DNA of 64,000 bases from Nitrosopumilaceae archaeon (GCA_052389415.1 JBQTHX010000014.1:1-64000); one strand, 5' to 3'; positions 1,702-42,419 are shown, counted from the stretch's first letter. Numbers and translations are program-made. The notes: generated by a model from the sequence alone, not told the origin.

Positions 1702-2019
1702 GGTAGTAGGTAGGATCGGGGCGCTAGCCGTGCCCTATATCTGAAACCGGCTATATGCAGAGATCAGTAACTGCTGGGTAAATCTCTAGATGGATAGTAC
1801 CTGCTTGACTTGCGGAAATGAAATCACGCCGAAGCGGGTGGATGCAGGACTGAAGCTGTCCGAAGGGATAGTCTTCAAGACCTAACTGCTGAAATGGATG
1901 AGGTCCGGGAGGGAGCAATCCTAAGGTGGAGCATTCACGCTGCGTCGTCTACGTGGCGGATCTTGCTTGACTTGAGATGGGGCTATTTGTTTAGCTTGGA
2001 ACTAGTAGAGCTACTACTA
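1702..2019 (+). ncRNA. ffs: Archaeal signal recognition particle (7S) RNA
   Basis: GC-rich intergenic ~320 nt; terminal helix ggtagtag/ctactact; Alu loop-loop complementarity TAGCCG/CGGCTA; helix 6 gctgtcc-GAAG-ggatagt (~1855-1872); helix 8 ggatgAGGTCC-GGGA-GGGAGCAatcc (~1896-1921); AT-rich TATA-like box near 1674-1680. Confidence 0.92.
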
Positions 2020-9350: not shown

Positions 9351-9409
9351 TCTACTCTCTACTATGGTTTAAGGTTTACCTAGATTATTTTCCAAAAAAA
9401 TTACAAAGA

Positions 9410-9494
9410 TGCGGGAGGTGGGATTTGAACCCACGAACTCCTAAGAGATAAGGTTCTGAGCCTTACACCGTTGACCAGGCTAGGCAACCCCCGC
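9410..9494 (-). tRNA. tRNA-Leu (anticodon CAG)
   Basis: Reverse complement folds as cloverleaf: GCGGGGG acceptor, TAAGG-CT-CAG-AA-CCTTA anticodon arm, long variable arm, GTGGG-TTCAAAT-CCCAC T arm. Confidence 0.96.
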
Positions 9495-9504
9495 AACGAA
9501 AAAA

Positions 9505-15923: not shown

Positions 15924-15931
15924 ATTATAAG
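15924..15931 (+). promoter_or_regulatory. TATA box of tRNA-Gln gene
   Basis: attataag; typical archaeal spacing puts the start site near 15952-15954. Confidence 0.6.
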
Positions 15932-15961
15932 GGAACTAAATTCAACATTCAACGCCCGGAA

Positions 15962-16051
15962 AGCCCGGTAGAGAAAAAATTCACCGAGTGTAGCGGTCAA
16001 GCATAGGGGCCTTTGGAGCCCTTGACCCCAGTTCGAATCTGGGCCGGGCTA
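15962..16051 (+). tRNA. tRNA-Gln (anticodon TTG) with 17-nt intron (15972-15988) at position 10/11
   Basis: Removing agaaaaaattcaccgag gives a standard tRNA-Gln: AGCCCGG/CCGGGCT acceptor with A1-U72, TTG anticodon loop, CCCAG-TTCGAAT-CTGGG T arm; BHB geometry at both junctions; T-tract downstream. Confidence 0.93.
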
Positions 16052-16066
16052 CTTTTTTTGTTAATA

Positions 16067-42277: not shown

Positions 42278-42328
42278 GAATTCTTTTAGTAATTAGACTA
42301 TATATTGTTAGATCCAAAGTTTGAATGT

Positions 42329-42402
42329 GCGGAGTTAGTCCAGCCCGGCACGACGTCAGCTTCCCAAGCTGAAGGCCGCGGGTTCAAATCCCGCACTCCG
42401 CA
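42329..42402 (+). tRNA. tRNA-Gly (anticodon CCC)
   Basis: GCGGAGT/ACTCCGC acceptor, TCAGC-TT-CCC-AA-GCTGA, GCGGG-TTCAAAT-CCCGC. Confidence 0.96.
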
Positions 42403-42419
42403 TTTAATTATAATAAAAC

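Follow-up and report, generated by a model that had tools for sequence, protein, structure and literature searches.

A leader copy of the acceptor 5' strand accompanies an acceptor-borrowing intron in archaeal tRNA-Gln genes and may act as a decoy during splicing

Non-canonical tRNA introns have long posed a problem of folding, in that bases required by the splicing motif are also claimed by the cloverleaf, and to our knowledge the usual account says only that the precursor 'refolds'. This problem is raised by a tRNA-Gln(UUG) gene of a Nitrosopumilaceae archaeon (GCA_052389415.1) that lies in a stretch of 64,000 nucleotides (JBQTHX010000014.1:1-64000), hereafter referred to as the window, from whose first letter all coordinates are counted. 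The 4-bp helix of the intron's bulge-helix-bulge motif uses CGGT at 15966-15969 (tRNA positions 5-8), three bases of which belong to the 5' acceptor strand; this had been recognized in the original prediction, made from the sequence alone, and is read at these coordinates in the DNA. How, then, can such a precursor form its splicing motif and still yield a mature acceptor stem? The same prediction drew attention to a second GCCCGG just upstream of the gene (15954-15959), which indeed matches tRNA positions 2-7 exactly and complements the 3' acceptor strand, and to a TATA box at 15924-15931 that would place the transcription start at about this copy.

The tRNA-Gln(UUG) gene occupies positions 15962-16051 on the + strand, with the discriminator A73 at 16051, and a 17-nt intron after tRNA position 10 (15972-15988) was placed by the bulge-helix-bulge rule; the gene span and the intron position both correct those of the original prediction. 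An AG repeat is present at either end of the intron, and the splice junction is not fixable from the sequence alone. The locus is composed of the following elements:

15924-15931, + strand: TATA-like box ATTATAAG (ATTATAAGG when 15932 is included), a motif kept upstream of the orthologues; putative promoter
15954-15959, + strand: leader decoy GCCCGG, which repeats tRNA positions 2-7 and complements 16044-16049; predicted first bases of the transcript
15960-15961, + strand: spacer AA between the decoy and tRNA position 1
15962-15971, + strand: exon 1 of tRNA-Gln(UUG), positions 1-10 (AGCCCGGTAG), with the acceptor 5' strand at 15962-15968; AGCCCGGT corresponds to 15962-15969, positions 1-8
15966-15969, + strand: 5' strand CGGU of the central 4-bp splicing helix, tRNA positions 5-8, facing ACCG at 15983-15986
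15970-15972, + strand: 5' bulge AGA
15972-15988, + strand: intron of 17 nt at position 10/11; its removal yields the sequence of the intron-less orthologues
15973-15975 with 15980-15982, + strand: distal helix GAA/UUC, closed by the loop AAAA
15983-15986, + strand: 3' strand ACCG of the central helix
15987-15989, + strand: 3' bulge AGU
15989-16051, + strand: exon 2, positions 11-73 (TGTAG...CCGGGCTA), 100% identical in sequence in 14 relatives; Rfam tRNA match at 15987-16043
16013-16015, + strand: anticodon TTG
16044-16050, + strand: 3' acceptor strand CCGGGCT
16053-16059, + strand: run of seven T just 3' of the gene, a likely termination signal

The exons of this gene form a regular cloverleaf with the acceptor stem AGCCCGG/CCGGGCT, the anticodon loop CTTTGGA and the anticodon UUG, and the intron-less orthologues (73 nt) are exactly the predicted spliced product. 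The Rfam tRNA model matched with 35.1 bits (cut-off 29), and only over 15987-16043 (model positions 9-63), while ARAGORN missed the tRNA-Gln(UUG) gene at 15962-16051; both outcomes are consistent with a 5'-proximal intron. No open reading frame of note overlaps the locus, and the tRNA gene sits between open reading frames. The intron presents a bulge-helix-bulge motif with the central helix CGGU:ACCG and two 3-nt bulges, AGA and AGU. Its outer helix h' comprises 3 bp (GAA/UUC) and its outer helix h at most 1-2 pairs; hence, the Gln intron belongs to the relaxed HBh' type. The helix h is present in the intron-containing Ser and Thr genes discussed below. Among the relatives, Gln introns vary in length between 15 and 59 nt, and the spacer separating the decoy from the tRNA measures 0-8 nt in the Gln orthologues and up to 32 nt in the tRNA-Ala gene of genome G044. 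A reading in which the upstream copy is the real exon 1 was rejected: in tRNA-Gln it would set C1 opposite U72 and provide no U8, in tRNA-Ala the upstream copy lacks the G3-U70 pair, and the intron-less orthologues carry the downstream version.

The genome of this archaeon encodes an archaeal RNase P RNA (184.8 bits) and contains two separate genes of the EndA family (PF01974; 107.5 and 79.6 bits). From these two genes, the splicing endonuclease of the host would be assembled from two different subunits; the excerpted text of PMC4090602 assigns an alpha2-beta2 type of endonuclease to the Thaumarchaeota. The genome also carries an archaeal SRP RNA and the archaeal elongation factor 2 (aEF-2).

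Can a copy of six nucleotides stand upstream of its source by chance? On both strands of the 64-kb window, at a GC content of 33-37%, GCCCGG occurs five times, and three of these five occurrences fall within the tRNA-Gln locus. When the last 16 leader bases of each tRNA gene in the genome were compared with the complement of the gene's own 5' strand, the strongest leader duplex among 35 other tRNA genes reached only -5.1 kcal/mol, while the duplex of the tRNA-Gln(UUG) leader with its 3' strand amounts to -14.1 kcal/mol; none of these 35 other tRNAs possesses a comparably strong leader site. The copy is accordingly not a mere coincidence. The Gln-CUG paralogue of the same genome has neither an intron at position 10/11 nor a decoy.

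That the leader frees the 5' strand for the bulge-helix-bulge motif had been proposed from the sequence, and folding returned the proposed structure. Without the leader, the minimum-energy fold of the locus is the ordinary acceptor stem (-32.8 kcal/mol); with the leader, it combines the decoy:3'-strand helix with the splicing helix CGGU:ACCG (-37.6 kcal/mol). For the unspliced RNA, the decoy state has an energy of -37.4 kcal/mol versus -33.8 kcal/mol for the enforced genuine acceptor stem. The pairing probability of the decoy with the 3' strand is 0.99, and that of the splicing helix falls from 0.98 to 0.00 when the leader is removed. The same dependence was obtained in all 25 Gln loci with a single intron: when the leader was omitted, the acceptor stem had a probability of 0.98 and the splicing helix one of 0.00 in each of them, and when it was included, the decoy helix reached at least 0.85 in 21 of the 25 loci and the splicing helix at least 0.69 in 19. 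The exceptions are two loci with degraded decoys (G017 and G022) that show no switch, two loci weakened by G-U pairs, and two with long introns, to which the helix definition used may not fit; the decoy state has a probability of only 0.33 in G035 and 0.56 in G015. The minimum-energy folds of a His locus, a Thr locus and four Ala loci display the same switch.

The original prediction further held that the decoy is displaced after splicing, and this part fared less clearly. In unconstrained folds of the spliced, leader-bearing RNA, the decoy is still preferred in 19 of the 25 loci. At the locus under study these folds give -34.5 kcal/mol for the decoy versus -33.0 kcal/mol for the genuine strand, a preference that rests on non-native pairings breaking the T arm. 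When the cloverleaf is held, the decoy is favored before splicing (-30.3 versus -29.1 kcal/mol), and the genuine strand is favored after splicing (-28.7 versus -27.5 kcal/mol), that is, by 1.2 kcal/mol. Since the unconstrained fold keeps the decoy after splicing, its displacement would require tertiary structure, RNase P or a protein. Strand displacement after splicing is no more than plausible in these models, whose margins are small. Taken by itself, the arrangement is that of a candidate RNA switch: two mutually exclusive helices share one 3' strand, both partners are conserved and co-vary, the calculated gap between the two states is 1-4 kcal/mol, and its sign flips upon splicing when the cloverleaf is held.

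A co-occurrence of the leader copy with the intron had been anticipated, and it is borne out among relatives of the host. tRNA-Gln genes were collected from 59 of 61 genomes of the same order, representing 20 families (G002 and G058 had no match), and 65 tRNA-Gln loci were parsed; left out were three tRNA-Glu genes (L114, L118, L119), a locus at a contig end (L115) and an unparsable one (L120). The 10/11 intron is present in 34 of the 65 loci and absent from 31. The median energy of the leader:3'-strand duplex is -14.1 kcal/mol with the intron and -3.7 kcal/mol without it, and a duplex at or below -10.3 kcal/mol is formed by the leaders of 32 of the 34 intron loci versus none of the 31 intron-less ones. 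The decoys of the intron loci stand 0-8 nt before position 1 and read GCCCGG, AGCCCGG, GGCCCGG, GTCCGG, GGTCCGG, GCCTGG, AGCTCGG or AGCCCCG; the two loci with weaker duplexes carry degraded decoys, namely ATCCGG in G017 (-6.9 kcal/mol) and a copy with a 1-nt deletion in G022 (-9.0 kcal/mol). Among the intron-less loci, the strongest leaders are AGTCTGG of the Gln-CUG gene in G047 (-9.8 kcal/mol) and CCCCGG in G060 (-8.9 kcal/mol). The Gln-CUG gene of G054, which has no 10/11 intron, possesses an exact copy 21 nt upstream in a promoter-proximal position, outside the 16-nt measure; an interpretation of this gene as having an intron within the acceptor stem was discarded, as no register yields a valid motif. 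Within genome G042, the Gln-CUG gene carries both the intron and the decoy, and the Gln-UUG gene carries neither. A second sample was drawn through synteny with the upstream open reading frame and comprised 80 loci of the Nitrosopumilaceae type, 49 of which held a tRNA. All 24 intron loci in this sample have duplexes at or below -10.3 kcal/mol and all 25 intron-less loci have duplexes at or above -7.5 kcal/mol; this sample shares lineages with the first one and is not independent of it. All of its parsable loci labelled Nitrosopumilus, Nitrosarchaeum or Nitrosotenuis are devoid of the intron, and the labels point to Nitrosotalea-like and other Nitrosopumilaceae lineages as carriers of intron and decoy.

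The substitutions that have occurred in the decoys are mostly C-to-U changes that retain G-U pairs with the G-rich 3' strand, as in GTCCGG, GCCTGG and AGCTCGG. The acceptor stem of tRNA-Gln is invariant outside G049. In both Gln genes of that genome, the acceptor stem is AGCCCCG/CGGGGCU, the decoy is AGCCCCG and the strand of the intron helix is GCGG; the predicted co-variation with the acceptor stem is thus realized in the decoy and the intron helix strand alike. The two Gln genes share an identical 3' flank, and this co-variation was therefore counted as one event and not as two.

The association was also viewed against the phylogeny of the host organisms (INDEPENDENCE: EF-2 tree of 50 genomes with a midpoint root). 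The intron state changes at least 11 times on this tree and the decoy state 10-11 times. Six independent pairs of contrasting genomes are available on supported branches, and 11 when all branches are counted. The decoy changes in the same direction as the intron in 5-6 of the 6 pairs and in the opposite direction in none (sign test, p = 0.03-0.06). The intron is present in early branches on either side of the midpoint root, a distribution for which repeated intron loss is the simpler reading, and we infer this polarity. The closest contrast is provided by G015, which has the intron, and its intron-less sister G020. Their promoters and flanking leader sequences align, and G020 exhibits a 5-nt gap at the core of the G015 decoy; given these aligned flanks, the intron and the decoy appear to have been lost through separate mutations rather than through replacement of the locus.

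Does the decoy belong to the transcript? The predicted start at about the copy agrees with the geometry of the promoters, from which the start itself is derived. In the intron-less Gln genes of the family, the distance from the TATA-like motif to the mature 5' end is 21-24 nt (once 27 nt), and in the intron-bearing Gln genes, the distance from this motif to the first decoy base is 18-23 nt, mostly 19-21 nt; at the locus under study, 21 nt separate the end of the box from the decoy. The decoy thus starts where the mature 5' end of the intron-less genes is found, or 1-3 nt before it. In other tRNA genes of this genome, the box precedes position 1 by about 22-26 nt. A TATA-like box likewise lies 17-22 nt ahead of the leader elements of the Thr, Ser (G044), His and Ala genes described below, including the element with a 32-nt spacer. 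The first base of the decoy is usually a purine that follows a pyrimidine. These spacings support, but do not prove, a position of the decoy at the 5' end of the transcript; the argument is accurate to about 2 nt, and an offset of this size would already truncate a 6-nt decoy.

The design is not confined to tRNA-Gln. A screen of truncated or low-scoring Rfam tRNA matches in 14 genomes of other families, in which 45 loci were fetched, revealed, among the matches listed, introns that borrow the acceptor 5' strand in at least four further tRNA identities: Ser-UGA (8/9 intron, at least three genomes), Thr-GGU (8/9 intron, at least one genome), His-GUG (4/5 intron, at least one genome) and Ala-GGC (7/8 intron, at least four genomes). 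A leader element complementary to the gene's own 3' strand is present at all of these Ser, Thr, His and Ala loci; counter-examples may exist beyond the matches listed. In the Thr-GGU gene of G054, all 7 nt of the 5' strand recur unchanged, after an A, 5 nt upstream. The Ser-UGA gene of G047, whose CCA is not encoded, has the exact copy GCCGGGA 8 nt upstream; the leader of the Ser-UGA genes of G044 and G059, GGCGCCGG, is shifted in register and finds its partner in positions 68-75, among them the encoded CCA. The His-GUG gene of G049 combines a clean motif with the leader GGCCGTC, which corresponds to positions -1 to 6 with one C-to-U change. The decoys of Ala-GGC read GGACCGG in G056 and GGATCGG in G039, G044 and G059, with spacers of 6 nt (G056), 7 nt (G039), 32 nt (G044) and 14 nt (G059). 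In these Ala decoys, A3 pairs with U70 where the tRNA itself keeps the G of its G3-U70 pair, so that they complement the 3' strand better than does the 5' strand of the tRNA itself. This property of the Ala decoys, along with the use of two registers among the Ser elements, shows that complementarity to the 3' strand is conserved and not identity with the 5' strand. In some of the Ser, Thr and Ala loci, the central helix contains a mismatch, and the splice sites there were assigned by rule.

When nine leaders were paired with nine 3' strands in all combinations, the own 3' strand was the best partner for eight leaders; the ninth is the Ser leader with the shifted register, whose pairing the 8-nt measure undervalues. 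Orthologues without the intron mostly lack the element: it is missing from two of three intron-less Ser genes (the third, of G054, has a 5-nt partial match, CCGGG), no leader element was detected in any of four intron-less Thr orthologues, and none in the intron-less Ala-GGC genes of G054 and G041. Among 34 parsed control genes with D-loop introns or no intron, three have a comparably strong second site. One of these sites lies upstream of the TATA-like box, another is not kept in the sister genome, and the third is GCGGTCT of the Gly-UCC gene in G049, which has no acceptor-borrowing intron. Decoy-like sequences without such an intron are represented by the Gln-CUG genes of G054 and G047, by G060, by the Ser gene of G054 and by this Gly-UCC gene. 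Two further kinds of repeat were considered and set aside as decoys. The GGGCUA repeat in the D-loop introns of Gln-CUG genes is better understood as the partner of the D-loop GGCC than as a copy of the 3' strand, and exon/intron repeats in D-loop introns are a consequence of central helices that are palindromic (CUAG and GCGC, for example).

The leader copy and the acceptor-borrowing intron thus occur together as had been observed at the first locus. The interpretation of the copy as a decoy is supported, in that it passes every sequence-level test and generalises to other tRNAs. We consider it probable that the decoy holds the 3' acceptor strand so that the genuine 5' strand can form the splicing motif. 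Transcription would proceed from the TATA-like box with a start at or beside G15954, and the decoy of the acceptor 5' strand would come first in the transcript. The genuine 5' strand would form the bulge-helix-bulge with nearby sequence, namely the 3' portion of the intron and the first bases of exon 2; the 3' acceptor strand, made about 75 nt later, would take the free decoy rather than invade the splicing motif. The resulting precursor would consist of a tRNA-like body, a pseudo-acceptor stem and a protruding splicing hairpin, which the endonuclease would cut at 15971/15972 and 15988/15989. Upon ligation of G10 to U11, the genuine strand, its partner now gone, would swap places with the adjacent decoy, and RNase P would then remove the leader irreversibly. 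Such a mechanism needs an endonuclease that accepts relaxed motifs as well as RNase P, and the two EndA-family genes and the RNase P RNA are present. We infer the start site, the dependence of cleavage on the decoy, the exchange of strands and the sequence in which splicing and RNase P act.

Other explanations have to account for the same observations. The decoy may pair with the 3' strand, yet serve to provide a minihelix resembling an acceptor/T-arm while the genuine strand is busy, with the benefit lying in 3' trimming and CCA addition, in protection against exonucleases or surveillance, or in the folding of the tRNA body. This rests on the very pairing evidence that underlies the splicing-motif role, and it accords with a decoy conformer in which the D, anticodon and T arms remain native-like, and with the Ser decoys of G044 and G059, which also pair with G73 and the encoded CC and thereby draw in the 3' end. 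Nevertheless, we judge it unlikely as the explanation of the element: the splicing helix itself depends on the leader in the folding calculations (0.00 without it in 25 of 25 loci), and D-loop and other introns that disturb the tRNA body do without a decoy, 31 of the 34 controls lacking one. A role in forming the minihelix and one in freeing the splicing motif are compatible and not mutually exclusive. If the copy were a neutral, functionless relic of the mutation through which the intron arose or with which it came, for instance a local duplication, this would explain why in several lineages the element is an exact direct repeat beside its source, with AGCCCGG present twice in G056, G044, G043 and G048 and an 11-nt direct repeat in the Gln-CUG gene of G054. 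Such a relic would hardly be expected to persist in at least 12 families whose leaders can otherwise no longer be aligned, to change mostly in ways compatible with wobble pairing, to follow the acceptor change in G049, to match the 3' strand where it differs from the 5' strand (Ala) or to come in two registers (Ser); moreover, the copy is gone, through the 5-nt gap, in the closest intron-less relative G020 and was lost in 5-6 of the 6 independent contrasts. We regard this origin as a sufficient explanation of the copy as very improbable.

The element might also stand outside the RNA altogether, with the start site lying downstream and any role being exerted at the DNA level, for example through a preference in the initiator region. 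The start site is a predicted one, and the element is located right at it; a promoter element, on the other hand, has no reason to match the acceptor stem of its own gene in five tRNA identities or to disappear along with an intron located 10-20 nt downstream. The Ala elements of G044 and G059 have a bearing on this matter as well, since they stand 32 and 14 nt upstream of their tRNAs, yet 17-21 nt past a TATA-like box. In view of these properties, a purely DNA-level role appears to us highly improbable. Finally, the leader copy could pair elsewhere: its palindromic CCGG would allow a duplex with the genuine 5' strand, and the 3' portion of the intron is another conceivable partner. CCGG is self-complementary, the decoy and the exon could form a small hairpin, and the first four bases of the Ala decoy in G056, GGAC, match the intron sequence GUCC. 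The AGCCCCG decoy of G049, on the contrary, cannot pair with AGCCCCG and pairs fully with CGGGGCU, and palindromes are absent from the Thr, Ser, His and Ala elements; pairing of the decoy with the CCGG of the genuine strand was rejected on these grounds. The Ala decoy of G044 mismatches its intron strand GGCC, and the own 3' strand is the best partner for eight of nine leaders; we find a different pairing partner barely credible. The reading that we prefer remains that of a decoy for the 3' acceptor strand.

How does this element relate to known peculiarities of archaeal tRNA processing? Non-canonical bulge-helix-bulge introns, including those near the 5' end and at position 3/4, are on record (PMC4090602, PMC8450103; both in excerpt), and 107 non-canonical introns have been counted for the Thaumarchaeota (excerpt of PMC8450103). 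The Gln introns share with the non-canonical introns of Thermoproteota and Thaumarchaeota the 4-bp helix, the 3-nt bulges and the location outside position 37/38, and cleavage by a broad-specificity heterotetrameric endonuclease would likewise be expected here. In the excerpted accounts of these introns, only the intron and the exon-intron pairing are covered, with no leader taking the 3' strand (PMC4090602, PMC8450103). Split and permuted tRNAs likewise use sequences outside the mature tRNA as structural partners for the endonuclease (excerpts of PMC4090602, PMC4033280 and PMC3218864). Their extra sequences pair mutually, form the motif and are cut off by the endonuclease, whereas at the tRNA-Gln locus the leader pairs with an exon strand in a plain helix free of bulges and is presumably removed by RNase P. 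The decoy helix is a duplex of 6-8 bp, without bulges, formed with the exon 3' strand, and both splice sites lie downstream, inside the exon-intron hairpin and not in the decoy helix; this sets the locus apart from the split/permuted type. Ordered removal of multiple archaeal tRNA introns, in so far as the excerpted literature describes it, resembles the present case in that mutually exclusive precursor structures order the processing steps, but there the order results from overlapping introns and involves neither a dedicated decoy strand nor the 5' leader. In bacteria, the leader of a precursor tRNA can pair with the 3' end of the acceptor arm and alter the access of RNase P in an inhibitory fashion (excerpt of PMC9433436). 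According to the same excerpt, pairing in bacteria lengthens the genuine acceptor stem; in the tRNA-Gln precursor, the leader takes the place of the genuine 5' strand and goes together with an intron. The original prediction had described the element as one not known to its author, and our searches did not contradict this: no published leader strand that replaces the acceptor 5' strand was found in full-text literature searches, with older subscription papers and supplements outside their reach, and the available excerpts of PMC3218864 and PMC3241643 describe no such leader strand.

From a mechanistic point of view, the arrangement brings to mind attenuators and the expression platforms of riboswitches, in which one strand has two alternative partners and an event picks the helix. 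The likeness lies in the competing helices, with intron removal as the deciding event here. Unlike attenuators and riboswitches, the tRNA-Gln locus would employ no ligand, ribosome or terminator, and its output would be the order of RNA processing rather than transcription or translation.

Is the acceptor-strand decoy a general, so far undescribed class of cis-elements in archaeal precursor tRNAs? We regard this wider proposition as evenly balanced. If it holds, a compensating element at the 5' end of the transcript would be needed wherever a splicing motif takes up bases of the acceptor 5' strand; by holding the 3' strand, this element would turn the precursor into a switch with two states, in which RNase P cleavage has to await splicing. 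It would explain how introns came to settle at positions 4/5 to 10/11, and it predicts such elements, possibly with trailer decoys for introns on the 3' side, in Thermoproteales and other intron-rich archaea.

For introns adjacent to the acceptor stem, the genomes studied here seem to display a solution to the folding problem, namely a dedicated leader strand that evolves in step with both the intron and the acceptor sequence. If so, a simple RNA switch would fix the order of two universal steps of tRNA processing and would constrain both the sites at which introns can be gained and the manner in which they are lost. It would also improve the calling of tRNA genes, because a leader complement flags a hidden 5' exon, and it would bear on the way in which start-site and small-RNA data of ammonia-oxidising archaea are read.

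The window also contains the following RNA genes, all of ordinary appearance:

1704-2016, plus strand, archaeal SRP RNA (114.5 bits)
9408-9495, minus strand, tRNA-Leu(CAG)
42328-42403, plus strand, tRNA-Gly(CCC)

Elsewhere in the window's own genome, the tRNA-Arg(CCU) gene (G000:C28:33518-33575, minus strand) is interrupted in the D-loop by an intron at 15/16. Since the central helix of this intron is a palindrome (GCGC:GCGC), the same four bases are found in both the exon and the intron, and the same effect is seen, with CTAG, in the tRNA-Ala(GGC) gene of the related genome G054 (L125). These exon/intron repeats arise from palindromic central helices and are not decoys.

Several introns lie further downstream in their tRNA genes. 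That of a type-II tRNA in G057 (L171; G057:C54:744-811) is located at about 65/66, after the T stem and ahead of the 3' acceptor strand, and because it holds a second GTGGG...CCCAC hairpin, the precursor carries two tandem T-arm-like hairpins. This makes the gene a candidate setting for decoys on the trailer side. Two tRNA-Glu genes of G059 (L172, L173) possess introns of ~27 nt inside the T-loop/T-stem region, and their Rfam matches end at model position 63.

With respect to EF-2, the protein on which the genome tree for testing the intron/decoy association was built, the matches of G041, G057 and G049 begin at model position 32 and each contain one in-frame stop near the N-terminus. The open frames that hold the matches of G040 and G052 are 995 and 1355 aa long. 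Start-codon calls, fusions or inserts may be the cause.

The tRNA-Gln(UUG) and tRNA-Gln(CUG) genes of G049 (L046, L113) have the same variant acceptor stem, and the 20 nt that flank them on the 3' side are identical, which suggests that their 3' halves recently underwent gene conversion or duplication between the two paralogues. In the same genome, the leader of tRNA-Gly(UCC) (L149; G049:C1:316201-316268), whose sole intron seen is a D-loop intron, contains, 4 nt before GCGGTCG, the near-copy GCGGTCT, which is absent from the G048 orthologue (L131).

The tRNA-Gln(CUG) gene of G054 (L116; contig C13) lacks the intron between positions 10 and 11 and has an exact AGCCCGG copy 21 nt upstream, positioned 20 nt downstream of a TATA-like box and within an 11-nt direct repeat. 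In the minimum-energy fold, a GGGCT within the spacer is paired with the genuine 5' strand. The locus may represent a leader-only form of the proposed switch between decoy and genuine 5' strand as partners of the 3' acceptor strand, or the intron may have been lost recently.
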